64,000 nt of DNA, from positions 2,720-66,719 of the forward strand of contig JACUUL010000001.1 of the NCBI GenBank assembly GCA_014859345.1. Direction: 5' to 3'. Origin of the DNA: Thermoleophilia bacterium (GTDB lineage: Bacteria > Actinomycetota > Thermoleophilia > BMS3ABIN01). Below are positions 12,849 to 35,954 of this stretch, piece after piece. The notes under the pieces were generated by a model. The model worked only from the letters and a program-made list of their open reading frames with translations. It ran no database searches and was not told where the DNA came from. How positions within the stretch are numbered: position 1 is the stretch's first letter; the number at the start of each line of letters is the position of its first letter. Position numbers and translations under genes: made by a program.

Positions 12849-12880
12849 ATCATTAATCTGGAAGTTGTAATAGCGTCAGC

Positions 12881-14927: not shown

Positions 14928-15653
14928 TTGGTCTATAAATCAGAAACCGGTTTTGTTAGAGCTTTTTCTAGCTCTGTCGCCTATAATTCAGATTCGGGCC
15001 GCGCCGCCGGGAAGATGGTCTCTTTCAGCCAGGGAAGTATTGCTGTTGTGATGATTTTTTCCAAAAATTTTCCCAACCGGCATGTGATCATGATGATGGT
15101 CGTCATCATTCAGCTGGGCGTAATCGGTTTGCTCGACATGCTGTTTTTAGTTGAGCTTCCCCTGATGTATGTTTTGTGGCTGGTCCCGATATTTTTCGCT
15201 TTGTTCTTTTTGAGTACGGCCGAAGTTGTGGCGGTAGCGCTGGCCGCCTCCATGATCTGTCTGACCGCGCAAGCGGCCGCCGCGGAAAGGCTGTCTCTGA
15301 TTAATTGCCTTGCCATCGCCTTGTTCGGCATTGCCGCCGCTATTGCAGCGATTCCGGTGCGCCGGTATATCCAAACCGTCAACATGACCCGCAGCGCGCT
15401 GGAAAAATCCCCGCTTGCTCATGCAAAGTTCACGTTTCCCGGATATTCCATCATTGATTGCAACAGCGCCTTCGAAAAGCTGTCAAGCACGATGACCGGC
15501 CCGGGTCCGAAAAAATCGCTTTTTGACGCTTTCCCCCGGGAATCGGCCAATCAGATGGCCGAGCTCATGGATGAAGTCATCGCATCTCACACAGAGACCG
15601 AATGCAAGGAGCTCCGCTTTCCATCTCCCGGTGGCGGCTTTTATTTTTGGTGA
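14928..15653 (+). CDS. Sensor protein N-terminal part: membrane segments plus first half of a PAS domain (interrupted by in-frame TGA at 15651-15653)
   Basis: Hydrophobic TM block, then PAS-like FPGYSIIDCNSAFEKL...ECKELRFPSPGGGFYFW ending at a TGA. Same frame as the next ORF. Confidence 0.35.
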   Translation: MVYKSETGFVRAFSSSVAYNSDSGRAAGKMVSFSQGSIAVVMIFSKNFPNRHVIMMMVVIIQLGVIGLLDMLFLVELPLMYVLWLVPIFFALFFLSTAEVVAVALAASMICLTAQAAAAERLSLINCLAIALFGIAAAIAAIPVRRYIQTVNMTRSALEKSPLAHAKFTFPGYSIIDCNSAFEKLSSTMTGPGPKKSLFDAFPRESANQMAELMDEVIASHTETECKELRFPSPGGGFYFW

Positions 15654-17324
15654 GTGAGCTTTGTCCCACTTTCCCCGTCGGGGAGAGTGACCCCCCGGAG
15701 TGTGAGCATGTTCGCCTATGAGGTCACGGAGTCGATCACCCGGTCCCGGACGCAGGAAGCCGCCCTCAGGGTCAGCGTGTCGGCAATGTCCAGCCTCGAT
15801 TTCGACGAGACAATCATGGTGGTTATGGATGGATTGACTTCTATCACTGGAGTTGATACCGCGGCGCTGTTTCTGGTCGAGGACGATCAGTGGGTAGGAA
15901 AGGCCGGCCATGGGGAAATCTCCACCGGGCTGGTCCAGAAACTTCGATTCCCTTATGAAGCGATAGCCCCGGCCCGCGAAAGCGTTGAAAGAAAAGAAGT
16001 GATCACAATCGATGACGCGGGCAGTGACGGAGGACTCGACGCGGAATATGCAAGAAAACTGAAAGTCAGATCCGCCATGGTAGTGCCGCTGGTCAGCGGC
16101 AGCCGCGCCATAGGCGCCGTTGTTTTGTACCCCACTGGCGAAAAGCGGCTTTTTGATGAAGATCAGATCAAGTTCGCCACGATCATCGGCTCCCATGCCG
16201 CCCTGGCCATAGAAAATTCAATAATCTACCAGAACGAGCTTGCCATCAGAAAGTCCCTGGAAGCCATCGAGTTGGTGTCCGAGGCCGGACTGGTGTCTCT
16301 GGATCTCGAGGAGGTTCTGTTCGAGCTGGTAAACCGGACCCAGGACGTCATGCAGATGGATGCTGCCATGTTCCTGCTCTACGATGCCCGGGAAAATTGC
16401 CTGGTCGGGCGCGCCGCGACCGGCGCCTCGGACAAGGTTCCCATCTCGCAGATAAAGCTCGCGCCGGGAGAAGGGATAGCCGGCCGGGCGTTTCAGGAAG
16501 GCGCTCCCATGAAAATCGACGACATCCGCGGCCACGAGAGCGAGATGTGTGCCGAGATGTGCCCTCTGGCTGATTGCCACACCGGCGACTGTCCGTTCTC
16601 CGAACAGCACGGGATAGTCTCCGTGCTGGCGGTGCCGCTCAGGGTGACAGGCAGGCTGATCGGCGTGCTGCAGATCGGCAGCCGCCGCCAGGCCGCCTTC
16701 TCGGCCAGGGAGTGGGGACTTATCCAGGTGCTCGCCGACCGTGCCTCGCTAGCCGTGCAGAACTCGATGCTACACGAGGAAACCGCGCGGGAGCTGGCCC
16801 GGGTGAAGCTGCTCCGCGAGCTGGCCGATGCCTGCGCCGGCTCGCAGCACAAAGATGCCATCGCCGAGCGGGCCCTGCAGGCGGTTTACGAACGCATGGA
16901 CTGCTCCATCGCCAGCATCTACTGGCTTGACCCGGAAAGGGATGAGCTGGTCAACCTGGCTTTCAGAGGCCACCCGCCCGGCGTGGCGGAGAATCTCAGG
17001 ATTATCGGCCTGGATCGCAGCGAGTTGCTGCTCATACGCGCGGTTAACGAGCGACGCATCATCACTCATGAAGATTTCAACGTTGATAACGCCAGCGAAC
17101 AGGAGGCCGGGATCCTTCGGCAGATGGACATCGGCTACAGCCGCTGCGCCAGAGTTCCCATCGTTTACCAGAATGAGCCGGTGGGAGCCATGGCGGTAGT
17201 CTTCAGGGACAGCCGGGCCTTCACTTCTGGAGAACTGGAAACACTAAAGAGCATCTCGCATCTGCTGGCGGTGGCGTTCAAGAACTCCTCCGTGGACCGG
17301 GAAAGTCCTCTGCTGGAAAGCTGA
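15654..17324 (+). CDS. Multi-GAF domain sensor protein (continuation of a PAS domain, then about 3 GAF domains, no recognisable output domain)
   Basis: Starts immediately after the TGA in the same frame. VSFVPLSPSGRV...SMFAYEVTESITRSRTQEAAL reads as the C-terminal half of a PAS fold. Repeated GAF-like blocks follow. Confidence 0.55.
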   Translation: MSFVPLSPSGRVTPRSVSMFAYEVTESITRSRTQEAALRVSVSAMSSLDFDETIMVVMDGLTSITGVDTAALFLVEDDQWVGKAGHGEISTGLVQKLRFPYEAIAPARESVERKEVITIDDAGSDGGLDAEYARKLKVRSAMVVPLVSGSRAIGAVVLYPTGEKRLFDEDQIKFATIIGSHAALAIENSIIYQNELAIRKSLEAIELVSEAGLVSLDLEEVLFELVNRTQDVMQMDAAMFLLYDARENCLVGRAATGASDKVPISQIKLAPGEGIAGRAFQEGAPMKIDDIRGHESEMCAEMCPLADCHTGDCPFSEQHGIVSVLAVPLRVTGRLIGVLQIGSRRQAAFSAREWGLIQVLADRASLAVQNSMLHEETARELARVKLLRELADACAGSQHKDAIAERALQAVYERMDCSIASIYWLDPERDELVNLAFRGHPPGVAENLRIIGLDRSELLLIRAVNERRIITHEDFNVDNASEQEAGILRQMDIGYSRCARVPIVYQNEPVGAMAVVFRDSRAFTSGELETLKSISHLLAVAFKNSSVDRESPLLES

Positions 17325-17402: not shown

Positions 17403-18350
17403 ATGACTGTCCGCATAGGCCACCTGTCCACCTTCTACCATACCTCCATCCTGTTGATGGCCGACAAAACGACTGCGGAGAGGCTCGGTGCCGAAACCGA
17501 GTGGATCCTCATGGGGACGGGGCCGGATCTGGTCGGGGCCATCGGCAGGGGAGAGCTGGAAATCGCCTATATCGGCCTGCCGCCGGCGCTGGTAGGCATA
17601 TCCGGTGGCGTTCCCATCGTATGTGTGGCCGGCGGGCATGAGGAAGGAACCGTTGCCATTGGCAGGGTGGAAGACTCCGGTTATCCCGAGCATAGGGATC
17701 TGGGGGCGGTGCTCGGCCAGTATGAAGGTGAAAGGATAGGCGTGCCCGGCAAGGGGTCGATACATGACGTGATCCTGGCCGATGCCCTGGCACGGCACGG
17801 CCTGACCGGAAAAATAGACATAGTCAATTTCAGGTGGGCGGACATGGTTACGGAAGCCCTGGCAGAAGGAAATGTACGGGCCGCCTTCGGGACTCCCGCC
17901 CTGGCCGTATCCGCCCGCCGGTATGCAAGGTGCAAGATCATATGGCCGCCAAACCTTTTGTGGCCGGAGAATCCCAGCTACGGAATCCTGGCCCGTAAGG
18001 AATTTGTCGAGGCCGCCCCGGAGCTGCTTAAAAGCTTTCTTCTCCTTCACGAAGAGGCCACGAAAAGAATAAGGGAAGTTCCCGGCGAGGCCGCCTCCAC
18101 GATAGCCAAGTTCGTATCAGTCGTGGAAAGCGATTTCGTCCTTGAGGCGATTTCAGTATCTCCCAGATATTGCGCCGCACTCACGCCCGGGTTTATCGAT
18201 TGCACCATGAGGTTCGCCGGAGCGATGAAGTCGCTGGGATACATTGAGCGGATACCGGGAATGGAGGAGGTATTCGATTCCTCATTCATAAATGAAGTTC
18301 ACGGTCCGGGAGAGCATTATTCAAAGGGAATCAACAAAGGAGGTCTTTGA
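17403..18350 (+). CDS. NMT1/THI5-like (SsuA/TauA-type) substrate-binding fold protein, no signal peptide
   Basis: 315 aa periplasmic-binding-protein type II fold pattern. No N-terminal signal, so probably cytoplasmic. Family assignment tentative. Confidence 0.35.
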   Translation: MTVRIGHLSTFYHTSILLMADKTTAERLGAETEWILMGTGPDLVGAIGRGELEIAYIGLPPALVGISGGVPIVCVAGGHEEGTVAIGRVEDSGYPEHRDLGAVLGQYEGERIGVPGKGSIHDVILADALARHGLTGKIDIVNFRWADMVTEALAEGNVRAAFGTPALAVSARRYARCKIIWPPNLLWPENPSYGILARKEFVEAAPELLKSFLLLHEEATKRIREVPGEAASTIAKFVSVVESDFVLEAISVSPRYCAALTPGFIDCTMRFAGAMKSLGYIERIPGMEEVFDSSFINEVHGPGEHYSKGINKGGL

Positions 18351-18784
18351 TGTCTGCGGATAAACCCCTGCCTCGTCCCCGCAGGAAATCACGGGAGCCC
18401 GAAGGAGGGCTGCTGGCGGACAAGATGGCCAGGGCCATGGCAGAGGGCAGGTTTGATGAGTTTGTCGATAAAGAGCTGAAGGGAAACGAGGGCGCCCGCC
18501 GGCTAGCCGAATTGATGATGCATACCACGGGCATGGCTCCGCCCGCGGCCGGCAAGCAAAAGCGGAAGCAAACGCCTCGCAAAAAGATCCCGCCGGAGCA
18601 GAACGCCACCGGTAAAGAAAAAGTTGCGACCGGTGAGAAGCCGGGAGCCGCGGCCTCTCTGAAGCCGGGCGTAATGGAGGAGCTTTCCCGAATCGCCGCG
18701 GAAAATGGCGTTGAGGTGGACTGGATAATATCCAGGGCTCTAGGCCTTTATATCCGGGACCACCGGGCCACAGGCAGGCTTTAG
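18347..18784 (+). CDS. Hypothetical protein (basic, low-complexity middle; possible RHH-like C-terminus)
   Basis: 145 aa, overlaps the previous gene by 4 nt. No recognisable motif. Confidence 0.3.
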   Translation: MMSADKPLPRPRRKSREPEGGLLADKMARAMAEGRFDEFVDKELKGNEGARRLAELMMHTTGMAPPAAGKQKRKQTPRKKIPPEQNATGKEKVATGEKPGAAASLKPGVMEELSRIAAENGVEVDWIISRALGLYIRDHRATGRL

Positions 18785-18836: not shown

Positions 18837-19925
18837 TCAGGACGCCAGGAACTTCATGAACCTGTCGCGTATCTGTTCTGCGTCGAGAGGTATCTGCGAA
18901 ACTTTTCTGTCCCCTGCGCGCGCCGGCACGTGCAGGAAAAAAGGGCTTTCCGGCTTTTTCAGGGCGTCCAGGATTTCCTCAGCTGCCGCCGCTTTCCCGG
19001 TATGGCGAAAGCCCATGCCCCGGGCCAGCAGCTCCAGCTCGACGCAGCTGCCGGTCAGCGTCGGCTGTCCTCCGGTGGATCCGTAGGAGGCGTTGTCCAC
19101 CGCGATCACAAACAGGTTGCCGGGGTCCAGCATCGCGGCGGTGGCCAGGGTGCCCGGATTCATCAAAATGCTGCCGTCGCCTTCTATTACATAGATCTTT
19201 TTTGCTGTCGAAATGGCAAGTCCCAGACCGATCGCTGTCGCCATCCCCATGCTCCCCAGCATATAGAAATTTGAAGGCTGTTCGATGATCTCGTAGAGCT
19301 CTTTCGCTGGCACGCCGAGATTGCAGACCACCGCTTCGCCCCTGAGCGCCGGGGCAGCGGCCTCTATCACGGCGTAGCGGTCAAGCGCCGGTGCGGGAAT
19401 GTCCGCTATATCAAATGCTCCCGCTGAGACCTTGCAGGCGCGTCCGGAACTCTCACCCATGACCTCCGAACCTTCCCAGAGGACCGGGCTCATGAGGAAG
19501 AAATGTATGCTGCCCTCCGCGTATGCCCTATTGAGTTCTCCCGCAACCTTGCCCATGTCTTCGGCGGTGTGTAGTTCAGTCGAGTCCAGGCCCAGGGCAT
19601 CCAGAAGGCCGGGGAGCGCGCGGCCCATGGGAACCTGTGCGGCTATGCCCTCCTTGTACACACCCCGCCAGCTCACGAAAACAGCAAGCGGCAGGCCATA
19701 ATAAAAGTTGAGGGACATCAGGGCGTTTATCATGTTGCCGACGCCCGAGCTCTGGATCATCAAGGCGGGCCTTTTCCCGGCCAGGGCAGCTCCCGCCGCG
19801 ATGCCCATTCCCTCTTCTTCGCGGGTAAGCGGCACTCTCCGAAAATAGCTGTCGGAGAGAGTCAAAAGCCCCTTTATCCTGTCGCAGGGGAGGGTGCAGA
19901 GGAGATCGACTCCTCCGGCCCTCAT
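18837..19925 (-). CDS. Fused TPP-dependent sulfopyruvate decarboxylase (ComD-ComE like; alternatively phosphonopyruvate decarboxylase)
   Basis: 362 aa. The N-terminal half resembles ComD (GIAAGAALAGKRPALMIQSSGVGN). The C-terminal half carries a TPP-binding motif (VIEGDGSILMNPGTLATA) like ComE. No PEP mutase gene nearby, which favours sulfopyruvate. Confidence 0.6.
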   Translation of the reverse strand: MRAGGVDLLCTLPCDRIKGLLTLSDSYFRRVPLTREEEGMGIAAGAALAGKRPALMIQSSGVGNMINALMSLNFYYGLPLAVFVSWRGVYKEGIAAQVPMGRALPGLLDALGLDSTELHTAEDMGKVAGELNRAYAEGSIHFFLMSPVLWEGSEVMGESSGRACKVSAGAFDIADIPAPALDRYAVIEAAAPALRGEAVVCNLGVPAKELYEIIEQPSNFYMLGSMGMATAIGLGLAISTAKKIYVIEGDGSILMNPGTLATAAMLDPGNLFVIAVDNASYGSTGGQPTLTGSCVELELLARGMGFRHTGKAAAAEEILDALKKPESPFFLHVPARAGDRKVSQIPLDAEQIRDRFMKFLAS

Positions 19926-19930
19926 GGCCT

Positions 19931-21184
19931 TCAGGAATATCTCTTCAGGGTTTGGCAGAAAAGCTCCTCCAGTTCAGGATTGCTTATCTCTTTCGAAACC
20001 AGCTCGCCCTTGACCTTGCGGGCCTTCCTTTCCCTTTTGATGAGTTTCTCGCCCCCGCCTGTAATGTTGAGCAGGACCGGGTCTGTCTTTGGCAGCGAAC
20101 CAGCGGCCTTGACAAGCGACGCCACCGCCACAGCCGCGGCCGGAACTATATCCAGGCCTTCCGTTTCTTCAAACAGTTCTGCCGCCTCCCGGGCCTCCTC
20201 GTTGGTTATGCCGTAGAAATCACCGCCGCACGCCTCGAGCGCGTCGTATACGCCTCCCTGCACCGAGTAGGCCGGATACCGGGACGACAGTACCCGGGTG
20301 GAGATCATTTCTATCAACCTCGAGTCCAGATCCTTGGCAGCCAGTTCCCTCCTGTGATGCTTCCAGGCCCAGTACATGGGAGCGAAGGGCAGGTTCTGCG
20401 CCAGATGAAGCTGGGGAAGACTGTTGCCGAAACGCCCGTCCGCCAAAAACCTCTCAGCCATCTCCCAAGACGCGATCGCCCCGGCGCCGCTTCCTACCGC
20501 CTGGAAATAATGCGCCGGCAGCCTGCCCATCGCCGAAACTGCTTCCAGGAGCACCACCCCCAGGCCGTCCCGTTTGGCGACGTTCTTCACCCCTCCCTCA
20601 AATGGCATTCCGGAGACCCGGGCGACCCTTCCGGCCAGATCTATGGCATCGGAATAATCGCCGTCCTTGACCACCAGGGTAAGCACACCCGCGGAATCGG
20701 TGTGGTACCACATCTCCTTCCAGCACATGAAGGGGACAACTATAATCACCGGATAGCATGCCTTGGCGGACAGGTAAGCGAAAGATCTTGCGGTATTTCC
20801 GGCTGAGGCCACAACCAGCCCTTCCACGCCATTCTCCCTGGCATTCTCCATTACCACCGCTGCCTCGAACTCCTTGAACGTGCAGGTCTCCGTAAGCGCT
20901 CCTATTTCCGGGGTGTAACCCGTGTATGCAACATGGAGATCGTCAAGCCCGAGTGCCCGGGCAAGACCCTGTGAGCGGTATATCACCGGACCGGGCATTT
21001 TGAATGCCGGCTCGTGGACGGGCAGCCAGTTGAAGCGCCAAATGCCCGGGGCGCCGCTTTCGCGAAACAGCCTGTCGCGGTACTCGGTGACCAGCAGGGA
21101 ATTCGGGCAATGCTCGCAAAAGGCGCAATAGATCTCCTCAAGCGCCTTGCCGCATTTCCTGCATCTTATACGAAAATGGCTCAT
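19931..21184 (-). CDS. Threonine synthase-like PLP enzyme with N-terminal zinc ribbon; candidate cysteate synthase
   Basis: Real start ATG at 21184, forming an ATGA overlap with the HdrD-like stop. CRKCG...CAFCEHC zinc ribbon, TFKE PLP-lysine region, Gly-rich SAGNTARS. Adjacent ComDE-like gene supports a sulfonate (cysteate to sulfopyruvate to sulfoacetaldehyde) route. Confidence 0.5.
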   Translation of the reverse strand: MSHFRIRCRKCGKALEEIYCAFCEHCPNSLLVTEYRDRLFRESGAPGIWRFNWLPVHEPAFKMPGPVIYRSQGLARALGLDDLHVAYTGYTPEIGALTETCTFKEFEAAVVMENARENGVEGLVVASAGNTARSFAYLSAKACYPVIIVVPFMCWKEMWYHTDSAGVLTLVVKDGDYSDAIDLAGRVARVSGMPFEGGVKNVAKRDGLGVVLLEAVSAMGRLPAHYFQAVGSGAGAIASWEMAERFLADGRFGNSLPQLHLAQNLPFAPMYWAWKHHRRELAAKDLDSRLIEMISTRVLSSRYPAYSVQGGVYDALEACGGDFYGITNEEAREAAELFEETEGLDIVPAAAVAVASLVKAAGSLPKTDPVLLNITGGGEKLIKRERKARKVKGELVSKEISNPELEELFCQTLKRYS

Positions 21185-22383
21185 AAGCAGCCTGCCAGAA
21201 GTTCCATGATGTCCGTTATCCTGACCTGCTTTTCGTATCCCTCCATGGCCTCGTTCACCTTTGAATAGCACGCGGGACAGCTCAAAATGAACCTGTCCGC
21301 GTTCTTCTCCCAGGCCTCGTCTATAGCCAGCCTGCCAATTGCCACCGCATTCTCATGAAACACCTTCCGGGCTGCTCCCCCGGCTCCGCAGCATCGCGAA
21401 TCCCTGCGGTTCCGGTCGAACTCGAGGAGCTTAAGGCCCGGTATCGCCCTCAGGACCTCTCTGGGTTCCTCGATCACGCCCACCCCCCTGCTCAGGTAGC
21501 ATGGGTCGTGGTAGATAACCTTCCCGTTAAATCCACTTTTTAGCTTAAGCGTGCCTTCGGCCAAAGCCCGGCTGGCAAATTGCGTCATGTGCCTTATGCG
21601 GAAGGGTAGCTCCTTTCCCAAAAAGAGCGGCCATTCCCTGGCCATCATGTTCACGCAGCAGGGACAGGAACATATAAGTGTCTCGACCCCCTTATCCTGA
21701 TAAGCGGATACGAGCTGTTTGACAAGACCTTCCAGCAGATCGAACTGGCCGGTTATGAAAAGGGGAAAGCCGCAGCAGACCTCTTCCTCGGCGCCAAGCA
21801 TTGTAAACGGCTCTCCGGCAGCGGCCAGCACGAGCGCGTCTCCCCTTACCATGGGATGCGCTTCGTACGCCCCCGTGCATCCAACGTAGTATGCAATCTT
21901 CGCTTTCGCGACAGGCTCCACTCCCTCCGGGAACCAAGGCGAAAACCTCTCTGACGCCGGCTTGTCGTACACATTTCCCGTCTCCTTAACAAAACCGGGT
22001 ATCAATTTCTGTGGACCGATGGGGCCAAGGCCCCTCCTCACCATTTCGCGCCTCAGCATGGGCCATAGCCTCTGGGTGTAGATGCCTACCGGGCAGACTT
22101 CGCCGCACGCGCCGCAGGTTGTGCACTCGAAGATCGCCTTGGTGAACTCCTCGAGCAGCTCCTGGTTCACCCTTCGCCGGCCGAACAGCATGCCCTTGAG
22201 GCCCTGGGTCGACTTGATGAACTCCCTGAATATGCGTATCTTCTCACGGGGAGATACGGAAGCGTCGCCGGTCACATCCTGAACAGGACATTTCTTCAGG
22301 CATTCGCCGCACTGGGTGCAGGCGTCGATTTCGATCACCTGTTGACGCGAGAGGCAGCTGGTGAATGAGTCTTTCTTAATCAT
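21181..22383 (-). CDS. HdrD/DsrK/GlcF-family iron-sulfur protein (two 4Fe-4S ferredoxin motifs plus two CCG domains)
   Basis: CTQCGECLKKCPV and CTTCGACGEVCPV, then VCCGFPLF...CSCPCC and RCCGAGG...SCPAC (CCG-domain signatures). Confidence 0.7.
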   Translation of the reverse strand: MIKKDSFTSCLSRQQVIEIDACTQCGECLKKCPVQDVTGDASVSPREKIRIFREFIKSTQGLKGMLFGRRRVNQELLEEFTKAIFECTTCGACGEVCPVGIYTQRLWPMLRREMVRRGLGPIGPQKLIPGFVKETGNVYDKPASERFSPWFPEGVEPVAKAKIAYYVGCTGAYEAHPMVRGDALVLAAAGEPFTMLGAEEEVCCGFPLFITGQFDLLEGLVKQLVSAYQDKGVETLICSCPCCVNMMAREWPLFLGKELPFRIRHMTQFASRALAEGTLKLKSGFNGKVIYHDPCYLSRGVGVIEEPREVLRAIPGLKLLEFDRNRRDSRCCGAGGAARKVFHENAVAIGRLAIDEAWEKNADRFILSCPACYSKVNEAMEGYEKQVRITDIMELLAGCL

Positions 22384-23047
22384 GCAAGAGACCCTCGGTT
22401 TCCTCCTGCCTTCTTCTGGACTCGATCGTTGTGAAGGGAGCCGTGAAGATGTGGGTGGGCAGGAAGGCCAGAACGACGAATGCCAGCAGGAAATGCAGCG
22501 GGAAAAGCCAGTTTTGCGGCGGTGCGATTATCCGGAAGGAAAATATGCCCATCATGAAATTTTTCGCAGCTGTTATGTCGGCCCTGAAGTACTGGGCCAG
22601 AAACAGACCGGTGAGCCCCAGGAGCAGGATGGTGGCGGTGAGCATCAGGTTGTAGATGGAGCTGTACTTCATTCTTTCCCACACCAGCCGGTAAATCAGG
22701 ATATAGGCCAGCGAGGCGATCAGGGCCACGCCGGCATAAGGCTTGATTTGCGCCAGCACAATCATCCAGCGGGGGACGTCATAGAAGAAAAATCTCAGAT
22801 GGCCGAGAAAGACCAGAATGAACGAGATATGGAAAACCCATGATCCCGGCCATATGCCCGGATTGGCATTGAACAGCCTCCTGAGCAGGAAAATATCCAG
22901 TATCGCCAGCAGGATGGAGGAAATGGACTGCTTGCCACCAGGCGCCGGAGATCCATCTCCCCGGATGTAGATCAGAAACCGGACGGTTACGCCTACATAG
23001 AAAACGAGCAGCGCCGCATAAGCGACAATCGCCAGCAGAATGGCCAT
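22376..23047 (-). CDS. NarI/HdrE/DsrM-like membrane di-heme cytochrome b subunit
   Basis: 223 aa, 5 TM helices, His pairs in TM helices (FHISFILVFLGHL; PLHFLLAFVVLAFLPTH). Overlaps the downstream HdrD-like gene by 8 nt, as in hdrED/dsrMK pairs. Confidence 0.55.
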   Translation of the reverse strand: MAILLAIVAYAALLVFYVGVTVRFLIYIRGDGSPAPGGKQSISSILLAILDIFLLRRLFNANPGIWPGSWVFHISFILVFLGHLRFFFYDVPRWMIVLAQIKPYAGVALIASLAYILIYRLVWERMKYSSIYNLMLTATILLLGLTGLFLAQYFRADITAAKNFMMGIFSFRIIAPPQNWLFPLHFLLAFVVLAFLPTHIFTAPFTTIESRRRQEETEGLLHD

Positions 23048-23050
23048 CGC

Positions 23051-23389
23051 TCACCTTTCCAGCTCCAGGATTTCTTGCATGAACTCGATATGGGCGTCTT
23101 TCGGCAGGCGAAATCCGGCCTCCGCCTCCAGCGCCATCAATATCCCGGCCGGGACCGGACAGGACACGTGCTTTAAATGCCTGTCCGCGGCCCGGTAAAC
23201 CGGATTTTCCATGAACCTGACGAAGGCGTCCATACGGTTCAGCTCTTTAATGTCGCCGGCCATGCGGGTCACGTGCTCGCAGTCGCTCTTCATTTCAACG
23301 CTGTATGGCTCATTTTTGCCGCCGTTTCGTATGCGTACCCAGGTGATGAAACCGCAGGCCCCAGAGGTTATCCTGACGGAGGTGGTCAC
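23051..23389 (-). CDS. Hypothetical 112-aa protein, translationally coupled between RACE and HdrE-like genes
   Basis: 4-nt overlap with the RACE stop and a 3-nt gap to the HdrE-like start. Contains 4 Cys and 6 His. No known family recognised. Confidence 0.3.
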   Translation of the reverse strand: MTTSVRITSGACGFITWVRIRNGGKNEPYSVEMKSDCEHVTRMAGDIKELNRMDAFVRFMENPVYRAADRHLKHVSCPVPAGILMALEAEAGFRLPKDAHIEFMQEILELER

Positions 23390-25362
23390 CCTTTTACCGG
23401 CACGGCCGAGCCGGATTCCTCAAGCATTTTCTTTACATGAGGAAATTTGTCTTTCATGTGGGGTATATGCATGGCCTGTATGAACTCTTTCTCGAATTCC
23501 GGCTCCACTGCTATTTCCAAGTACTCGAGTTCTCTGGCCTGCTTCCTGGCCTCCAGCCGCTTGGTCCTGCTCAAAAGGGCCATTATGGCTCCATCGCCTG
23601 CGGCATTGCCCACCGCGTAAACCTTCTCCGGATCGCAATCAGGAAACATCCCCAGTGTCATCGCGGATTTCTTGTGTATGTAACTTCCAAAGGCCCCGGC
23701 CAGTATGACCTTTTCCACTTTCGCTATGCCCATTTTTTTCATCATCAGCTTGGCGCCGGTGTAAAGGGCCGCCTTGGCCAGCTGCAGCGCCCGGACGTCC
23801 GCCTGCGCGATGGTAATGTCTGTGCCAATAGATGTTTCCTTCGCCCAGGCCAGGACATATTCGAGTTTCCCGTCATGGTCCCGGCGAACTCTCTCCGTAT
23901 CCAGATCCTTGGCCATTCTTCCGGATTTGTCTATTATGCCTGCCTTGAACATCTCCGCCACTACATCGATTATCCCGGAGCCGCATATGCCCTTTGCCTC
24001 TATGTCGCCCTTGATTTCGGTATGCCATTCCTCTTTGCCAATTACTTTATACACGGGCTCCCTGGTCTGCGGGTCGATCTTCACTTTCTCTATGGCGCCG
24101 GGGGCGGCCCTCATGCCGAATTTTATCTGGGCTCCCTCAAATGCCGGACCCGTGGCGCAGGAAGTCGAGGAGAGATGTTCCTTGTTTCCGAGCAGGAGCT
24201 CGCCGTTCGTGCCAATGTCGATAATCAGAACCTTCTCTTTCATCCGGTACGGCTCCTCAGCAATGAGGACGCCCACGTTGTCCGCGCCCACGAAACCCGC
24301 CTCGATCGGCAGGACATGAACATAGGACGCATGGTTAATCCCTATATCCATATCCCGGGCCTTGATGTTAAGGTCGTTCTGCACCGCCGGGATGAAAGGC
24401 GCCAGGCCGATATACACCGGATTAAGGCCCAGGAATATATGGTGCATGGCTGTATTGAAGACTATTGTCATGTCCACTATCGACTGGCCGCCGGGCTTCG
24501 CGTCCATTTCGTAATTCGCTGTCAGCCTGCCGATCAGGTCGTTCAGGCCGTCTATCAAGGCCTTCTGCATGGTCTCGAGCCCGCCCTCGGTCATCATGGC
24601 GTAGGTGATCCGGGACATCACGTCCTCGCCGTAAGGAACCTGGGGATTCATCATCGACTCGGTTCTGACCACCTCGCCGGTTGTCAGCTCGCATAGGTAC
24701 GCGGCCACGGTAGTGGTCCCCACGTCCACCGCCAGCCCCAGGGAGGATTCCACGAAACCCGGTTCCACTTTCACTATCTCGGAATCCATCCATATGGAGA
24801 CTGTAATTTTCCAATCACCTTCCCTGATGACGTCCTGCAGGCCAGTAAGCACGGCATAGTCCATCGAGAGGCCCGTGAGGCCGTATTCCGCCTCGATCTC
24901 GGCTTTCAGCCTTTCCAGGTCACCCACGATAGTTTTTTCCAGAGTGGGTTTCTCCAGCTCCACGAAGTATTTCCTTACCGCCGGCTCAATAGGCACGGTC
25001 ACCTTCCGGGCCGTCTTTCTGACTATCTGCTTTCCGGCACGGGATTTCTCGGGAACGAAGAGCTTGACGTCTCCATGGAGCTCGGCGGCGCAGGCGAGCC
25101 TGATATTCTCACCGTCGGCGGGTTTTATGAACTTCTTTTCCCCATCCGTAATGGGACTCAGATTTGTCATCCGGGAATCAATATTGTCTTTCTCGAAATA
25201 ACCTTCATCCACCCGGACCTTGCATTTGCCGCAGGTTCCCTTGCCTCCGCATATGGATTCGAGATCCACTCCCAGTTGCTGCGCGGCCTCGATCAGGCTT
25301 TTTCCCTCTTCCACTTCGCCGCGCCGGCCCGAGGGCTGAAAAATTACCTTATGCTTGCGCAT
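23386..25362 (-). CDS. RACE-type reductive activator of corrinoid enzymes (2Fe-2S ferredoxin plus ASKHA ATPase domain; RamA/RACo-like)
   Basis: 658 aa. N-terminal plant-type ferredoxin (CGGKGTCGKCKV) followed by a large ASKHA/DUF4445-type ATPase domain. Confidence 0.8.
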   Translation of the reverse strand: MRKHKVIFQPSGRRGEVEEGKSLIEAAQQLGVDLESICGGKGTCGKCKVRVDEGYFEKDNIDSRMTNLSPITDGEKKFIKPADGENIRLACAAELHGDVKLFVPEKSRAGKQIVRKTARKVTVPIEPAVRKYFVELEKPTLEKTIVGDLERLKAEIEAEYGLTGLSMDYAVLTGLQDVIREGDWKITVSIWMDSEIVKVEPGFVESSLGLAVDVGTTTVAAYLCELTTGEVVRTESMMNPQVPYGEDVMSRITYAMMTEGGLETMQKALIDGLNDLIGRLTANYEMDAKPGGQSIVDMTIVFNTAMHHIFLGLNPVYIGLAPFIPAVQNDLNIKARDMDIGINHASYVHVLPIEAGFVGADNVGVLIAEEPYRMKEKVLIIDIGTNGELLLGNKEHLSSTSCATGPAFEGAQIKFGMRAAPGAIEKVKIDPQTREPVYKVIGKEEWHTEIKGDIEAKGICGSGIIDVVAEMFKAGIIDKSGRMAKDLDTERVRRDHDGKLEYVLAWAKETSIGTDITIAQADVRALQLAKAALYTGAKLMMKKMGIAKVEKVILAGAFGSYIHKKSAMTLGMFPDCDPEKVYAVGNAAGDGAIMALLSRTKRLEARKQARELEYLEIAVEPEFEKEFIQAMHIPHMKDKFPHVKKMLEESGSAVPVKG

Positions 25363-25582
25363 CTCTCTTCCTCCATGAAGTTTCGGATATCCCTTTAATC
25401 ACTGTTGCCGTAATCATCATCCTGAGGGATAAATGAGGGGACGGTTACCCCCGACTGCCGGATTACCGGCCGTCCTGTAACCGAAGCAGATGGTAAAAAT
25501 GCGGGGCAAACTTACCGACCGTCCCCCAATCGCGCCAATGGGGAGGTGGCGATATCCGATGTCACGTTTAACTCTGTTTCCT

Positions 25583-26266
25583 CTATTCGGCCTCTGCCTC
25601 TTGTTTAAGCCTTTTGAGAGAGCTGACCATGTCTATGGCGTCCTTGAGCGCGTTGCTGGCGTCGGCCGCGTATCCGTCTGCGCCCCACTTGTCGGCTATG
25701 TCCTGTGACGCCGGGGCGCCGCCTATCATTATTATACAATCTGGGTTCTTCTCCTTGAGATCATGGATAACCTTCTCCATGCCCGACATGGTCGTCGTCA
25801 TCATGGCGGACAGGCAAACAAGATCCGAATCCGTCCGGAGCTGCTCTTCAACGAACTTGTCGAGGGGCACGTCCCTGCCCAGGTCATAGACCGTGAAGCC
25901 GGCCACGTCGAACATCATCTTGACTATGTTTTTGCCGATATCGTGGACGTCTCCTTCCACCGTGCCGATTACCACCGACCCCCTGACACCCAGATCCAGC
26001 TGTTCGACATGGGGCCTGAGAATATCCAGCCCGGCATACAGGGCATCCGCGCACATCAGCAGCTCGGGGACGAAATATTCCTCCTCCTCGAAAAGCCTGC
26101 CGACTTCCTCCATGCCGGTCACCAGTCCGTCGAATATCGCGTCATTGGCCTTGAGGCCCTCGTCCAGCGCTATCTGCGCCCACTCCCTGGCTGTGTCCTC
26201 GTCGTACTCGATAACGGCGTTTTTGAGATTTTCCAGTATTTCCTGTTTCCGTTCTTCCGTAGCCAT
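25583..26266 (-). CDS. Corrinoid (cobalamin-binding) protein, MtaC/MtbC-like
   Basis: 227 aa. B12-binding DxHxxG motif (GDVHDIGKNIV) and N-terminal helical cap domain. Confidence 0.8.
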   Translation of the reverse strand: MATEERKQEILENLKNAVIEYDEDTAREWAQIALDEGLKANDAIFDGLVTGMEEVGRLFEEEEYFVPELLMCADALYAGLDILRPHVEQLDLGVRGSVVIGTVEGDVHDIGKNIVKMMFDVAGFTVYDLGRDVPLDKFVEEQLRTDSDLVCLSAMMTTTMSGMEKVIHDLKEKNPDCIIMIGGAPASQDIADKWGADGYAADASNALKDAIDMVSSLKRLKQEAEAE

Positions 26267-26270
26267 TAGC

Positions 26271-27320
26271 TCACCTCGCGTAGTTTCTAACCGCGTCCAT
26301 CATCGCCTCGAAGTTCCGGGGCGGAACCGTGGGCCATATATCACAGCCCGGCCACACGGCGCTGACCCCGTCGTCCAGGCATTTATTTATCGTTTGCTCC
26401 ACCAGTTCCGGAGTGCCGGATACCAAAACGTTGAACGGGTCGTAATTTCCGAATACCAGGGCATCGGGACCAAGCTCCTCCCTGGTCTTGATTATTTCGT
26501 TTCTCTGGTCCACGCTGATCGCATCGGCCCCGGCTTCCACCATGGCGCCGACTATCGGGTTTGTCTTGCCGCAGATATGGTTTACGCTGGGCACCGTGAT
26601 TTCAGCAAATATCTTCTTCAGGTTGGGCAGAATCAGTTTCTTGAAGATCCGGGGGCTAAGCACATCCGAAGTCGCCCCCATCTCCCTGACGGTAAGGTAG
26701 TCGATGCCCGCTTTTTCGTACCGCTTTAGCACCGCTATGATGACATCAGCCAGCTTGTCGAGCAGCGCCTCCACCTTGTCGGGCTTCTTGAATGAGAGCT
26801 TGAGGAGGTCGTTGAGCTCCATAATCTGTCCTGCCAGGGTAAACGGGCCCAGCACATAGCTCCCGACCGGCACCTCACCCTTGAGTTCCTCCTTGGCCAG
26901 CCCTATCGCTTCGCACACAAGGGGAACCCGGCCCTTCTCGGCCACATCGGCCGGCATGGAGAGATCCATTTCATCTTCGCTATGGATGACCTTCTCCTTG
27001 ATCGTGGGGTAAAACAGGTCCTCCGTGTGGGCATAGGTGTTTATCTCGCATCCGATGGCCTCGGCCTCGACGCAAAGATCAAACGGCACCACGGCGCAGT
27101 CGAACCCGAAGAGTTTCGGAGTGGAAACGGCCGCTTCGGCCATCTGCCGGCTATCCAGGTGCACTTCAGCGAACTTGTAGCCCAGCTTCTCGAGTCCGGC
27201 GGTGGTCACGTTGCCCAGGCCGCTGAAGCAGGCCGGCCTGTCCGTCTTCTCGCCAGCAAACACGCTGGCGACCCTTTCTTTGGCGGTCATCGTCTTAAGC
27301 TCCTGTTCTTTCCTGTTCAT
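26271..27320 (-). CDS. MtaA/CmuA-family (UroD-fold) zinc methyltransferase 1
   Basis: 349 aa. UroD-family N-terminus, zinc ligand motif VNHICGKT and downstream PGCDIWP, as in methylcobamide:thiol methyltransferases. Confidence 0.75.
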   Translation of the reverse strand: MNRKEQELKTMTAKERVASVFAGEKTDRPACFSGLGNVTTAGLEKLGYKFAEVHLDSRQMAEAAVSTPKLFGFDCAVVPFDLCVEAEAIGCEINTYAHTEDLFYPTIKEKVIHSEDEMDLSMPADVAEKGRVPLVCEAIGLAKEELKGEVPVGSYVLGPFTLAGQIMELNDLLKLSFKKPDKVEALLDKLADVIIAVLKRYEKAGIDYLTVREMGATSDVLSPRIFKKLILPNLKKIFAEITVPSVNHICGKTNPIVGAMVEAGADAISVDQRNEIIKTREELGPDALVFGNYDPFNVLVSGTPELVEQTINKCLDDGVSAVWPGCDIWPTVPPRNFEAMMDAVRNYAR

Positions 27321-27326
27321 GTTTTT

Positions 27327-28289
27327 TCACTTTTTTGCCTTGGCTTTCCGGCCCCCACCGGCTTCGAGTTTCTCAATGAAGTCAGGGAAATATTTCCGCA
27401 GGGGCAGATCCGGGTTATCCGGTATCTGCCCGGTCTCATCGTACACCAGGGTGGAAAGCAGTACGTGGGCGGTCGCCACGGCCGGAAATATCCTGGGCGC
27501 CGTCACTATTGGGCCGTAAAGATTGAAGTCGCTCCACAGGGCGGTTGACATTCCCTGCGCCACCGCGTCCATTGCCCTGAAGCCTTCCTGCCCCCAGGCA
27601 TCTTTCGCTTCTTGCCACATATGTGTCCCGTTCGAGTACGCCGCGCCGCAGGGGTAGCCGAGCTCCTCCTTTATCATCTTGTTGGCAAGCAACGAAAAGG
27701 ACGTGGACGGCAGATTCATGACAGAGGTGTCCACGATTACGGTATCGAAGGCGTCCGCTCCCTGCTCGAGTATGCTCTTCAGGGATTTCAGCCTGCCCTT
27801 GGGAGACTGGTCCTCGTCATCGAACGCCTGGATTATGACGTGTTTGATTCCAAGGTTCTTGAGGGTTTCGACCTGTCCCCTTATATCCTTGTCCCAGGCA
27901 GTGATGCTGTTGTAAAGAAACTTGTCCTGGGCCCCGATCTCGGCGACGTACTCAGTGGCTTTTGCGCGTTTTTTGGGAACCCACATATCGATGCCGAAAG
28001 GCATGTCAGTCGTTTCGGTATAGAAATCTATGTAAATCCTGGCTTCATCCGGAGAATTAGCCACCATGGCGACCATGGCGGGTATGCCGGTGGCCCGGGA
28101 GAGTTCTTCCTGTTTCCTGATTAGATCAACGGCTTTTTCCCGGTCGAAGTCTCCTTTTCTGTCACGCAGTATCCTGTCTTTGTTATGGAACATCGATGCG
28201 ATCAGCAACGGCGGGTTGTCGCCGGGCTGCCCGCCGATCTTTATCCCGTCAAACTCAAAGACTTTCTGCGGAGTCGCAAACCTGAACAT
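27327..28289 (-). CDS. MtrH-like (pterin-binding) methyltransferase, probable methylcorrinoid:tetrahydrofolate methyltransferase
   Basis: MtrH-family similarity begins at MFRFATPQKVFEFDGIKIGGQPGDNPPLLIASMF (ATG at 28289). The longer track ORF would overlap the AhpD-like gene, so the internal start is used. Confidence 0.65.
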   Translation of the reverse strand: MFRFATPQKVFEFDGIKIGGQPGDNPPLLIASMFHNKDRILRDRKGDFDREKAVDLIRKQEELSRATGIPAMVAMVANSPDEARIYIDFYTETTDMPFGIDMWVPKKRAKATEYVAEIGAQDKFLYNSITAWDKDIRGQVETLKNLGIKHVIIQAFDDEDQSPKGRLKSLKSILEQGADAFDTVIVDTSVMNLPSTSFSLLANKMIKEELGYPCGAAYSNGTHMWQEAKDAWGQEGFRAMDAVAQGMSTALWSDFNLYGPIVTAPRIFPAVATAHVLLSTLVYDETGQIPDNPDLPLRKYFPDFIEKLEAGGGRKAKAKK

Positions 28290-28350
28290 CACCTCTCCTT
28301 GGATATTCTCAGGCCGGCGGAGGGAATTCCCTCCGCCGGTCTTTTTTGCC

Positions 28351-28950
28351 CTAGTAGATCCCGTGGTCCCATTTCGGCTCGGGGAGATACTCCCACGGTT
28401 CGCCTTTGCGATGCTTGGCCTCGATGTCGAGGCATTTGACCGCGTATTCGAATGCGTACGGTATGCCCGGACCGCCAGGTACAAAGCCGGCCAGAATCAT
28501 CCCCACGGACGCCGCCTCGAATATTTCCTCGGTGGTCGCTCCCGCTTCTATGGCCGGAACCACGTGAATGATGCACCGGGGAGAGCAATAGGAAACGCCG
28601 CCGGCCATGAACATCAGTTCCTTGATCTTTTTCGAAAGGGCGCCGTCGCCGAACACGCTGGCGTAGAAATCGGCGAAGGTCTTGCCCGGCACCGGCGTTA
28701 CCGTGTTGATCGTCTGGAACATCCTGGGCGTGAAGCCCATGACGTTTTTCATGTATTCGTTGCATTCCTCCGGCGACATCGCCGCGCATTCTTCCATCGT
28801 CATCGCTTTCATGCTGCTCTCAGCCATTTCTGCTCCTTTCTCGCTTTCGTCCCCGCCCTCCCGCTTCGAAGTGGAGGCGAAAAATTTTTTAAGTTCGTCC
28901 CAGAAATTCATCTCTTCGGCTCCTCTCCCGGCTTTTATAAGCCAGAACAC
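28351..28950 (-). CDS. Carboxymuconolactone decarboxylase/AhpD-like family protein
   Basis: CSPRCIIHV (CxxCxxxH AhpD-core motif). Confidence 0.55.
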   Translation of the reverse strand: MFWLIKAGRGAEEMNFWDELKKFFASTSKREGGDESEKGAEMAESSMKAMTMEECAAMSPEECNEYMKNVMGFTPRMFQTINTVTPVPGKTFADFYASVFGDGALSKKIKELMFMAGGVSYCSPRCIIHVVPAIEAGATTEEIFEAASVGMILAGFVPGGPGIPYAFEYAVKCLDIEAKHRKGEPWEYLPEPKWDHGIY

Positions 28951-28989: not shown

Positions 28990-30018
28990 CTAAAGCTTCC
29001 ATTCTCTCGCCGTCCGGATGAATGCCTCAATGTTCTCGTAAGGCACGGTTGGCGGTATATCGCAGCCAGGCATCAACACAAACCCTCCGTCCGTCCCCGC
29101 CGTCTCGATTATCCGGCGCGAAACCTCTTCCACCTGCGCCGGGCTTCCCTGGTCCATGACGGCCACAGGATCAATATTGCCGCCGAAGCACATTTTCCCG
29201 TGCAGCGTCTCCTTCGCCTTGGCGATATCAGTCTTGTGGTCCAGGCTTATGCAGCTTGCCCCCGTATCGACCATCAGGTCAAGCCTGTCGGTGGTGTTCC
29301 CGCATATATGCACCAGGGTGTGCCTGTCATGCTGCTTTGCCCAATCGGTGAACTTTTTAAGGTATGGCAGGGCGAATTCCCGAAACTGTTTTTTGGAGAT
29401 GAGGTCTCCCGAAGCGGTTGGGTCTGCCAGCGAGATGACTTCGAGCGTCCCGTCCCGCACCAGGGGCTCGAATAAATGGATAAGAAGGCCGGTAGTGAAA
29501 TCTGCCATTTTGTGAACGAAGTCCGGCCGTTTGAAGGTGGCCTTCATCATGGTCTCTTCGCCCACAAACCGGGCGGCCAGAGTATATGGACCCCAGGCGG
29601 TCATCGTCACAACATATTCGTCTCCAATCTTCTTTTTGGTCTCCCTGAGGGCTTCTTTGACTGTATTTATCACCTCGTTCCTGTCCAGAGCCGAGTAGTC
29701 CAGTTTATCGATATCCTCGGCAGTGTCGACCAGGTGCTCCTTTAGATCGGGAGCGCCCATCTCTCGGTACTTTATCCCCCCGCCAAACGCCGAAGCGTGA
29801 AAGTTGTTATAACCCGAGCCCGCGTACACGATGTCACAGAGGAGCTTCCCCGACGTAGTAACCAGCATGTCTGTCATCTTCCCCACATCGGTCGCCAGTT
29901 CCTCGAAGGAGGTGCCAAAATTTCTGATGCTCCACATGCCTGCCCCGAACAGGGTGACCGGCACCCTCTCGGTCTTCTTGCCCTCATAAGCATCCAGGAT
30001 AATCTGTTTTGGTGTCAT
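28990..30018 (-). CDS. MtaA/CmuA-family (UroD-fold) zinc methyltransferase 2
   Basis: 342 aa. VHICGNTT and PGCDIPP zinc-ligand motifs. Paralog of 26271..27320 but clearly divergent. Confidence 0.75.
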   Translation of the reverse strand: MTPKQIILDAYEGKKTERVPVTLFGAGMWSIRNFGTSFEELATDVGKMTDMLVTTSGKLLCDIVYAGSGYNNFHASAFGGGIKYREMGAPDLKEHLVDTAEDIDKLDYSALDRNEVINTVKEALRETKKKIGDEYVVTMTAWGPYTLAARFVGEETMMKATFKRPDFVHKMADFTTGLLIHLFEPLVRDGTLEVISLADPTASGDLISKKQFREFALPYLKKFTDWAKQHDRHTLVHICGNTTDRLDLMVDTGASCISLDHKTDIAKAKETLHGKMCFGGNIDPVAVMDQGSPAQVEEVSRRIIETAGTDGGFVLMPGCDIPPTVPYENIEAFIRTAREWKL

Positions 30019-31454: not shown

Positions 31455-31659
31455 CGCAAATCCTCCTATTTTGTTGTTACCGCAGTTATAGTATAACAAT
31501 AGTTCAGTTTAGGAGCCACGTTTTCACCCTTGCCCCTGTCTCCATGATGGTCAAACAGTCAGTTATGACCCGGAATAATGCCCCGTTTACGATCCGGAAG
31601 ATCGTTCCCGGCCCATGATTTTCTGATACCCGGGATTCTCCATCATAAACCCGGTTTGA

Positions 31660-35848: not shown

Positions 35849-35954
35849 TTTGCATACCTTTCGCGGTTTTATCGTGCGGATCGTGCCCGGTCAAACATCG
35901 CCTGCTGAAGAAAGCAGCCAGGATATTCGAAGGGAAAGAAATTATAGTACACTC

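Follow-up and report, generated by a model that had tools for sequence, protein, structure and literature searches.

Introduction

What would a bacterium do with a corrinoid activase, a heterodisulfide-reductase-like pair and enzymes of sulfonate synthesis encoded in a single run of genes? This question is raised by a 64-kb stretch of contig JACUUL010000001.1 (the window, whose coordinates we use throughout), in which six co-directional minus-strand genes occupy positions 18837-25362. They encode, in order, a reductive activator of corrinoid enzymes (RACE), a small protein of the DUF6951 family, an HdrE-like membrane protein, an HdrD-like iron-sulfur protein, cysteate synthase (CS) and a fused ComD-ComE sulfopyruvate decarboxylase (ComDE). 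Coenzyme M (CoM) is considered a cofactor of archaea that metabolise methane or alkanes; to our knowledge, the only bacteria that have it are aerobic alkene oxidisers, whose pathway for making it is unrelated. Here we find that the six genes make up the distal half of a single conserved cluster with 11-13 genes, composed of three interleaved modules and spanning about 17.4-30.0 kb. All of its parts belong to known families, and it is the combination and the host range that are new. The cluster suggests that bacteria which produce no methane both synthesise and use a cofactor of methanogens.

A conserved cluster of 11-13 genes

The open reading frame (ORF) list and the junction read-out agree with the genes and spacings described in a first-pass annotation of this DNA. 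RACE and DUF6951 overlap by 4 nt, a 3-nt gap separates DUF6951 from the HdrE-like gene, the HdrE-like and HdrD-like genes overlap by 8 nt (ATGATTAA), the HdrD-like gene overlaps CS by 4 nt (ATGA), and 5 nt lie between CS and ComDE. Only the letters at the first overlap needed correction: they are GTGA rather than ATGA, because DUF6951 begins at a GTG codon. Profile searches bear out all six gene identities. The boundaries, on the other hand, had been drawn too narrowly. On the same strand the genes continue upstream to position 30018, adding two zinc methyltransferases (UROD1 and UROD2), a small AhpD/carboxymuconolactone-decarboxylase-like protein (CMD), an MtrH-family protein and a corrinoid protein in the order UROD1, CMD, MtrH, UROD2, corrinoid protein. 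On the opposite strand, conserved partners at 17403-18784 converge on ComDE.

The upstream genes are spaced 4-6 nt apart with three exceptions: the corrinoid protein and RACE are 220 nt apart, CMD and MtrH about 60 nt, and UROD1 and CMD about 160 nt, the last figure depending on the start chosen for CMD (ATG 28827). Scans of the 18.3-30.7 kb region returned promoter-like sites (6, with 5.8 expected) and terminator-like sites (18, with 12.7 ± 3.7 expected) at chance level, and so do not define the transcription units. The CMD/MtrH spacer holds a perfect 14-bp palindromic hairpin with 11 G-C pairs (28311-28342). No T tail follows it on the coding (minus) strand, which makes a role in mRNA processing or stability seem likelier than termination.

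Using CS as the query, we gathered loci from 80 species-representative genomes and read their gene order by tblastn of the window proteins. Nearly all are metagenome-assembled genomes (MAGs) of Nitrospirota/Thermodesulfovibrionales, with CS identities of 59-67%, and essentially all show the order UROD1-CMD-MtrH-UROD2-corrinoid protein-RACE-DUF6951-HdrE-HdrD-CS-ComDE. When only loci with enough flank are counted and the same order and orientation are required, ComDE is present in 75/75, HdrD in 72/74, HdrE in 63/71, DUF6951 in 63/65, RACE in 59/60, the corrinoid protein in 57/58, UROD2 in 56/57, MtrH in 54/55 and CMD in 47/53. About 55-75 species-level genomes retain the complete order, with proteins that are only 40-80% identical. 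Because order and orientation recur across related loci, the arrangement is more than chance. The gene-order check proposed in the first-pass annotation thus found strong conservation, and the claim made there that the arrangement is undescribed in bacteria is consistent with full-text literature searches, which found no description.

Two insertions recur within this order. Ten loci carry a FolD-like gene of 315-317 aa between DUF6951 and HdrE (L002 6737-7690, L012 7064-8011 and 8 others); we read its identity as methylene-tetrahydrofolate dehydrogenase/cyclohydrolase from the sequence rather than from a profile search, and its position inside the cluster ties the system to tetrahydrofolate. 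In 52 Nitrospirota loci a gene for a protein of about 216 aa with two [4Fe-4S] clusters lies between the corrinoid protein and RACE. This gene is missing from the window, where the corresponding spacer (25363-25582, 220 nt) is non-coding. A decayed ferredoxin-like gene in this spacer was considered and rejected, as tblastn detected no remnant.

Genes for a sulfonate precursor and their companions

CS (19931-21184, minus strand) passes the TIGR03844 equivalog with 468.8 bits (cutoff 324.9), its residues 4-394 covering profile positions 1-395 of 398. It matches Pfam PALP (1e-31), has a TFKEF motif that bears the Schiff-base lysine, and begins with a Cys-rich, zinc-ribbon-like segment in which C8, C11, C20, C23 and C26 are 97-100% conserved among orthologues. 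We consider ATG 21184 a better start than the GTG at 21271 used by the mechanical ORF, because the alignment to TIGR03844 begins at residue 4 and that to most of the 80 orthologues at residue 1 of the query. On threonine synthase (ThrC) models the protein reaches at most 68.3 bits, and on these scores we reject the threonine synthase assignment that the first-pass annotation had named as one that would refute its reading of this pyridoxal-phosphate enzyme. At the level of family membership, CS is predicted to convert O-phospho-L-serine and sulfite to L-cysteate. The family is compact: a threshold of E<1e-30 gathers 195 representatives from 1.84 billion proteins. Four homologues are natural fusions (P0151, P0171, P0144 and P0129), one with a PAPS reductase domain, one with a D-2-hydroxyacid dehydrogenase, and two with unassigned N-terminal extensions of about 150-300 aa; the two enzymatic partners fit the substrate pair of sulfite and phosphoserine.

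ComDE (18837-19925, minus strand) combines Pfam TPP_enzyme_N and TPP_enzyme_C and is assigned as the sulfopyruvate decarboxylase that yields sulfoacetaldehyde. Its alpha half passes TIGR03845 (169.1 bits, cutoff 147.95), and its beta half is best matched, among beta-type models, by TIGR03846 (206.7 bits). Phosphonopyruvate decarboxylase (194.6 bits, cutoff 312.5) and acetolactate synthase (29 bits or less) are both rejected by these profile scores, so the second objection raised beforehand, an acetolactate-synthase-like enzyme, also fails. Because ComDE directly follows CS in 75/75 loci, its pairing with a sulfopyruvate-producing route is present.

Convergent on ComDE is a plus-strand gene for a cytoplasmic TauA/SsuA-like protein (17403-18350; Pfam NMT1_2, 2e-14). 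It scores 89.7 bits on the SsuA family model, below cutoff, and its best PDB match is 6ssy, a protein that binds the C2 sulfonate taurine (2e-7). The protein has no signal peptide, and its conserved core starts at residue 3. It adjoins the cluster in at least 14 Nitrospirota loci and is 42-46% identical to the product of a gene that follows and overlaps CS-ComDE in loci L082 and L084. Its stop overlaps by 4 nt a small gene, orf145 (18347-18784, plus strand), which found no family match in profile searches. The C-terminus of orf145 is conserved and, on our reading, has a ribbon-helix-helix look; homologues adjoin ComDE in 31 loci.

CMD (28351-28827, minus strand) matches Pfam CMD above the gathering score (3e-6), has a GGAG-like site upstream of its start, and is 52% identical to the product of a CMD gene beside CS-ComDE-NMT1 in L082. 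DUF6951 (23051-23389, minus strand; PF22263, 2.4e-27) is a 112-aa protein with three cysteines and a histidine. A search with the single sequence found 4 matches and a 22-sequence profile found 1586, and the 120 matches listed are all close Nitrospirota-type relatives; there was no match in a PDB sequence search. Its AlphaFold2 model is confident (mean pLDDT 90.6), and the top 22 Foldseek matches in the PDB are all IscU, ISCU, SufU or SufE, at moderate similarity. The invariant residues C12, C37, H74 and C77 resemble the IscU/SufU ligand set. We take an IscU/SufU/SufE-like carrier role as a lead from the modelled fold.

Three types of context surround CS in related genomes. The methanogen type (L089, L087) consists of CS, an ATPase, CobW, a PF04060 Fe-S protein and ComD/E followed by COG1900 (HcyBio/MMP16). 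In L090 and L091 the partner of CS is an aminotransferase, a pairing that sulfonolipid synthesis would lead one to expect. The third is the window type. Locus L082 (10001-14957), with L083, belongs to a different lineage and contains overlapping co-directional CS, ComDE and TauA-like genes followed by PNPOx, a 169-aa ORF, CMD and DUF6951, and no methyltransferase genes are found there up to the contig end. The CS of these two loci is 47% identical to that of the window by tblastn and 49% in the HMMER listing. L084 has the same CS-ComDE-TauA-like triad, and L092 has NMT1_2, PAPS reductase and CS. Because the TauA-like protein, CMD and DUF6951 co-occur with CS-ComDE where methyltransferases are missing (L082/L083, and for the TauA-like protein also L084 and L092), all three belong with CS-ComDE and not with RACE, despite being interleaved in the window.

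Methyl-transfer genes

The first gene of the cluster, UROD1 (28990-30018, minus strand; Pfam URO-D, 4e-62), encodes an MtaA/CmuA-like zinc methyltransferase of the Mlp type. It falls below cutoff on the MtaA/CmuA family model TIGR01463 (188.6 bits, cutoff 235.4) and does not pass NF004889 (177 bits); its best PDB match is MtaA 4AY7 (1.5e-25). UROD2 (26271-27320, minus strand), an MtaA-like methylcobamide:thiol methyltransferase, passes both models, with 256.8 bits on NF004889 'methylcobalamin:coenzyme M methyltransferase' (cutoff 244) and 238.6 bits on TIGR01463, and matches Methanosarcina mazei MtaA (4AY7) over its full length (1.2e-44). Alignment to 4AY7 includes the HICG and PGC motifs. Their presumptive zinc ligands are 100% conserved, H237/C239/C319 of UROD1 in 26 orthologues and H248/C250/C326 of UROD2 in 48.

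In the UroD superfamily, S- and Se-methyltransferases have a His-Cys-Cys zinc site, while O-demethylases replace the cysteines (Kountz & Balskus, PMC10418091). Because this site is invariant and matches to the O-demethylase structure CdmB range from weak to none, we set aside an O-demethylase assignment and predict that UROD1 and UROD2 are thiol- or selenol-directed, like MtaA, MtbA and MtsA. CoM is a candidate methyl acceptor for at least one of these MtaA-like enzymes.

Three further proteins complete this module. MtrH (27327-28289, minus strand, start ATG 28289; Pfam MtrH, 7e-54) is a methyl-pterin:corrinoid methyltransferase on the tetrahydrofolate side and passes NF002142 (342.9 bits, cutoff 287). 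The methyl carrier (25583-26266, minus strand) has Pfam B12-binding and B12-binding_2 domains, a DxHxxG motif in the form DVHDIG at residue 106, and a TIGR02370 score slightly below cutoff (201.3 bits, cutoff 215.3). RACE (23386-25362, minus strand), with a [2Fe-2S] cluster and an ASKHA ATPase, matches Pfam Fer2, RACo_linker, Raco_middle and RACo_C_ter, all above cutoff, and has Cys38/44/47/91. We saw no MtaB/MttB-type gene for a substrate-specific methyltransferase (MT1) and no gene for methyl-CoM reductase (MCR) in the 64-kb window.

An HdrE/HdrD-like pair

The HdrE/DsrM/NarI-like membrane cytochrome b subunit (22376-23047, minus strand, 223 aa) matches NCBIfam DsrM at 5e-13, far below cutoff (48.9 bits, cutoff 300), and finds no Pfam NarI (Nitrate_red_gam) match and no PDB sequence match. 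Its H73, H83, H185 and H199 sit in two hydrophobic segments and are 98-100% conserved in 51 orthologues. Some genomes have a NarI-type membrane protein (Pfam Nitrate_red_gam, 1e-6) in place of this gene, for example L015 2468-3277.

The HdrD-type iron-sulfur protein (21181-22383, minus strand, 400 aa; Pfam CCG twice and the Fer4 dicluster domain Fer4_8) combines a 2x[4Fe-4S] ferredoxin part with two complete CCG motifs of the form CX31-39CCX35-36CXXC. The 8 and 10 cysteines of these parts, 18 in all, are invariant in 66 orthologues. Its best NCBIfam match is TfrB (175.9 bits, cutoff 385), with DsrK at 83.9 (cutoff 400). From these motifs a heterodisulfide reductase role is putative for the pair. 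A second, divergent HdrD paralogue with about 30% identity occurs in the clusters of L034, L035, L049 and L069 (about 6.6-8.0 kb). In L056 and L073 both genes of the pair are absent, and the order UROD-MtrH-corrinoid protein-RACE-DUF6951-CS-ComDE is kept.

Genomic surroundings and host

An anaerobic-type cobalamin operon lies directly upstream of the cluster on the same strand (31660-49549, minus), with CobS, CbiJ, CbiG/CbiH-like, CbiF-like, CbiD, CbiC/CbiX, CobB/CobQ, CobD and CobU. It is headed by a cobalamin riboswitch (49643-49812, minus strand) that scores 60.1 bits against a gathering score of 31.5. Between the operon and UROD1, an ORF at 30924-31499 (minus strand) matches the NCBIfam 'OsmC-related (seleno)protein' model at 3e-14, below cutoff. 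On the other side, before the TauA-like gene, 14928-17324 (plus strand) is taken up by a 241-aa ORF that gives a weak PAS signal and by a triple-GAF protein of 556 aa; neither is conserved beside the cluster in the Nitrospirota loci. Farther out, at 6474-7925 (minus), 11269-11754 (plus) and 12378-14248 (minus), are a B12-binding radical SAM protein, an Rrf2 regulator, a PCYCGC-motif protein and a 455-aa membrane Fer4_5 (NapH-like) protein.

The source record is labelled 'MAG: Thermoleophilia bacterium' (locus tags IBX61_), and the related clusters that carry a label are almost all from Nitrospirota. The closest relatives of the window CS (P0002-P0005) share 76-79% identity with it. Either horizontal transfer or a mis-binned contig could reconcile the Thermoleophilia label with Nitrospirota relatives. 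We take the host to be a bacterium because of the cobalamin riboswitch and because the related loci come from Nitrospirota MAGs.

A proposed methyl-transfer and thiol circuit

The reading that we favour, tentatively and at a little less than an even chance, is as follows. The cluster would serve to produce sulfoacetaldehyde and, after it, a C2 sulfonate thiol that is probably CoM; this thiol would be used in corrinoid methyl exchange with tetrahydrofolate, with the HdrED-like pair providing a link to the quinone pool. CS would form L-cysteate from phosphoserine and sulfite, a housekeeping aminotransferase encoded outside the cluster would convert it to sulfopyruvate, and ComDE would decarboxylate this to sulfoacetaldehyde; family membership supports the CS and ComDE steps. 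We infer that sulfoacetaldehyde would then be reductively thiolated to 2-mercaptoethanesulfonate (CoM) or a very close C2 sulfonate thiol. The thiolation may be carried out or assisted by the TauA/SsuA-like sulfonate binder, DUF6951 acting as an IscU/SufU-like persulfide carrier, and the AhpD-like CMD. These three are proposed because the cluster has no COG1900/MMP16 and all of them travel with CS-ComDE.

In the second half of the circuit, MtrH would move methyl groups between tetrahydrofolate and the corrinoid protein, and the two MtaA-like enzymes would move them between the corrinoid and thiol or thioether substrates, of which, for at least one enzyme, the sulfonate thiol would be one. RACE would spend ATP to hold the cobalt as Co(I). 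The HdrE/HdrD-like pair would use its two CCG clusters to join thiol/disulfide chemistry to the menaquinone pool, either re-reducing the disulfide of the sulfonate thiol or giving two electrons for thiolation. The net result would be a bacterial, MCR-free counterpart of the methanogen methyl-pterin/CoM/heterodisulfide circuit, in which methyl groups could flow in either direction.

The first-pass annotation had proposed that a CoM-like sulfonate thiol accepts methyl groups or serves as a redox partner. The His-Cys-Cys sites and the cytoplasmic TauA/SsuA-like neighbour speak for this proposal, the absence of COG1900/MMP16 from the window speaks against it, and we carry it forward in conditional form. 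Sulfoacetaldehyde and sulfide can give CoM, and L-ASST can back up MMP16 (PMC12068725). A bolder version, which we think possible but rather doubtful, is that Thermodesulfovibrionia and the window organism make genuine CoM by the archaeal phosphoserine/sulfite route and finish it with a new CoM synthase (the TauA-like protein, DUF6951 and the AhpD-like protein, possibly with electrons from HdrED), with methyl-CoM and CoM disulfide forming a methyl and redox loop linked to tetrahydrofolate and the quinone pool.

Several observations weigh against the favoured reading. No COG1900/MMP16 CoM synthase is present in the cluster or among the scanned ORFs of the 64-kb window; among related loci it turned up in L089, from a Methanomassiliicoccus MAG, beside ComDE. 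Sulfoacetaldehyde may also go to taurine, isethionate or sulfoacetate. The beta half of ComDE falls 15 bits short of the TIGR03846 cutoff of 221.5. Neither methyltransferase reaches the equivalog cutoffs for MtaA (NF040654; UROD2 239.4 and UROD1 146.4 against 400) or MtbA (NF041608; 177.2 and 160.0 against 600), and for that reason we do not file them as MtaA. We know of no sink for methyl-CoM in an organism without MCR. In locus L042, HdrD, CS, ComDE and the TauA-like gene occur without methyltransferases. A CCG domain does not always mark a disulfide reductase, and the best PDB match of the HdrD-like protein, 9ojn (1e-30), is described only as an 'iron-sulfur-binding reductase'; on these two grounds we keep the label at 'HdrD-like'. 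Relatives of GlpC, LdhH and GlcF match the protein as well. In other bacteria, MtaA-like proteins appear to use selenide or sulfide and not CoM (PMC10418091).

Alternative explanations

The cluster might instead be two unrelated neighbours: a bacterial methylotrophy system that passes methyl groups from a methyl thioether, halide or methoxy compound to the corrinoid protein and through MtrH to methyl-tetrahydrofolate, and an independent sulfonate pathway whose product is a taurine or isethionate osmolyte, a sulfolipid head group or a sulfite sink, with HdrED as a DsrMK-like respiratory module. A URO-D methyltransferase, a corrinoid protein, an MtrH-like protein and RACE are indeed the standard layout of bacterial and Mto-type demethylases, found in the Mtv, Odm and CmuAB systems. 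Moreover, CS serves non-CoM routes in the aminotransferase-paired loci, and methyltransferases are missing beside HdrD-CS-ComDE in L042 and CS-ComDE in L082. We nevertheless consider this explanation unlikely. The two systems are interleaved rather than adjacent, as CMD sits between UROD1 and MtrH, and DUF6951 between RACE and HdrE, and both occur with CS-ComDE elsewhere; the full order is held over dozens of species at 40-80% protein identity; and the window junctions overlap or measure 3-6 nt. In addition, both methyltransferases have a thiol-type and not an O-demethylase-type zinc site, and no gene of the cluster forms taurine, isethionate or lipid. A variant that we rate as improbable, somewhat more so than neighbouring systems, reads the locus as an 'mlp' cluster in which the MtaA-like proteins demethylate methyl-S/Se compounds and pass the methyl group to tetrahydrofolate, the sulfonate being incidental or a secondary acceptor. 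Two Mlp-like proteins, a corrinoid protein and RACE do make up the core of a type 1 mlp cluster, with the His-Cys-Cys site common to both, and the OsmC-related (seleno)protein-like ORF just upstream could matter because mlp-type clusters are linked to selenium. Type 1 clusters characteristically lack a tetrahydrofolate methyltransferase, whereas MtrH is present here, and no selABD was seen in the 64-kb window. This variant also leaves the invariant CS-ComDE and HdrED unexplained, and the description of mlp clusters in PMC10418091 has no mention of Nitrospirota, cysteate or sulfopyruvate.

The place of HdrED within the cluster could be explained differently again. As the first-pass annotation had suggested in its alternative, the pair might supply the electrons with which RACE reactivates the corrinoid protein. 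The [2Fe-2S] cluster of RACE requires an external reductant, and the HdrE and HdrD genes begin two genes downstream of RACE and are joined to it through DUF6951 by overlaps and a 3-nt gap. This role is nonetheless very improbable. L056 and L073 keep the methyltransferase and CS genes without HdrED, HdrD stays beside CS-ComDE in L042 where the methyltransferases are missing, and the dedicated 2x[4Fe-4S] gene before RACE in 52 Nitrospirota loci is a better donor candidate. A quinol-linked module, at about -70 mV, would also be too electropositive for reduction of Co(II), because even an ATP-coupled Co(II)/Co(I) couple requires a potential of about -500 mV. We favour the first arrangement, in which HdrED serves the thiol/disulfide chemistry of a sulfonate thiol.

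Implications

If that reading is correct, most of the methanogen methyl-transfer and heterodisulfide circuit would run in bacteria without MCR, and CoM-type chemistry would extend to anaerobic bacteria that are widespread relatives of sulfate reducers in subsurface, sediment and groundwater. Proteins of the cluster would be candidates for carrying out the final step of CoM synthesis in another way, a step that is incompletely understood even in methanogens. There would be consequences for how mtaA, hdrD, comDE and cysteate synthase genes in metagenomes are taken as signs of methanogens, and for how bromoethanesulfonate inhibition is interpreted in mixed communities. It also raises the question of what use an MCR-free organism has for a methylated thiol.

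Comparison with known systems

The closest parallel for the sulfonate genes is the class II CoM operon of Methanosarcina, in which CS (MA3297), ComDE (MA3298) and MMP16/ComF (MA3299) take phosphoserine and sulfite to sulfoacetaldehyde and on to CoM (PMC12068725, PMC9457059). In the window, too, CS directly precedes a fused ComDE, CS passes the equivalog of this pathway, and the predicted route to sulfoacetaldehyde is the same. The window cluster differs in having the TauA-like protein, CMD and DUF6951 instead of COG1900/MMP16, and in its bacterial host. It also lacks the ATPase, CobW and PF04060 Fe-S genes of the methanogen-type loci L089 and L087.

Likewise, the methyl-transfer genes resemble the methanogen MtaA/MtbA/MtsA systems in the full-length match of UROD2 to MtaA with its His-Cys-Cys site, the DxHxxG motif of the corrinoid protein, and an MtrH on the pterin side. 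Unlike those systems, the window has a bacterial RACE-type activase rather than RamA, and the equivalog cutoffs are missed. In contrast to the Mtr complex (methyl-tetrahydromethanopterin:CoM), MtrH stands alone without MtrA-G, so that sodium pumping is not expected. The HdrED-like pair shares with HdrDE of Methanosarcina and DsrMK of sulfate reducers a small four-histidine membrane protein and a cytoplasmic protein of about 400 aa with two [4Fe-4S] clusters and two CCG motifs, but it does not pass the curated models (DsrM 48.9/300, DsrK 83.9/400, TfrB 175.9/385). No genes for coenzyme B (CoB) biosynthesis were seen in the 64-kb window.

Among bacterial systems, type 1 mlp clusters contain several MtaA-like His-Cys-Cys proteins, which fall into the Mlp2 and Mlp3 clades, one corrinoid protein and RACE; a tetrahydrofolate methyltransferase is missing, and there are links to selenium or methionine-salvage genes (Kountz & Balskus 2023, PMC10418091). 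The window cluster is similar in its two MtaA-like His-Cys-Cys proteins, corrinoid protein and RACE, in a strictly anaerobic host, and in predicted S/Se-methyl transfer. It differs in having MtrH (and in some genomes FolD), CoM-precursor genes, HdrED and Nitrospirota hosts, and we set it apart from type 1 clusters because of MtrH, the defining feature. Corrinoid demethylases (Mtv/Odm/Mto, and CmuA/CmuB with FolD) share the URO-D methyltransferase, corrinoid protein, MtrH-like protein and RACE, and FolD is near in some of our loci as well. The cysteine zinc ligands are invariant in the window family, while the O-demethylase MT1 enzymes replace them, and none of those systems includes the sulfonate-biosynthesis and Hdr-like genes of the window cluster.

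The remaining bacterial precedent is the XcbB1-E1 route of Xanthobacter, in which aerobic alkene oxidisers make CoM from phosphoenolpyruvate, by way of a step of the aspartase/fumarase family, for epoxide carboxylation (PMC9457059). The pathway proposed here would likewise be a bacterial CoM synthesis, but one with entirely different enzymes and a proposed use in methyl transfer rather than epoxide carboxylation.

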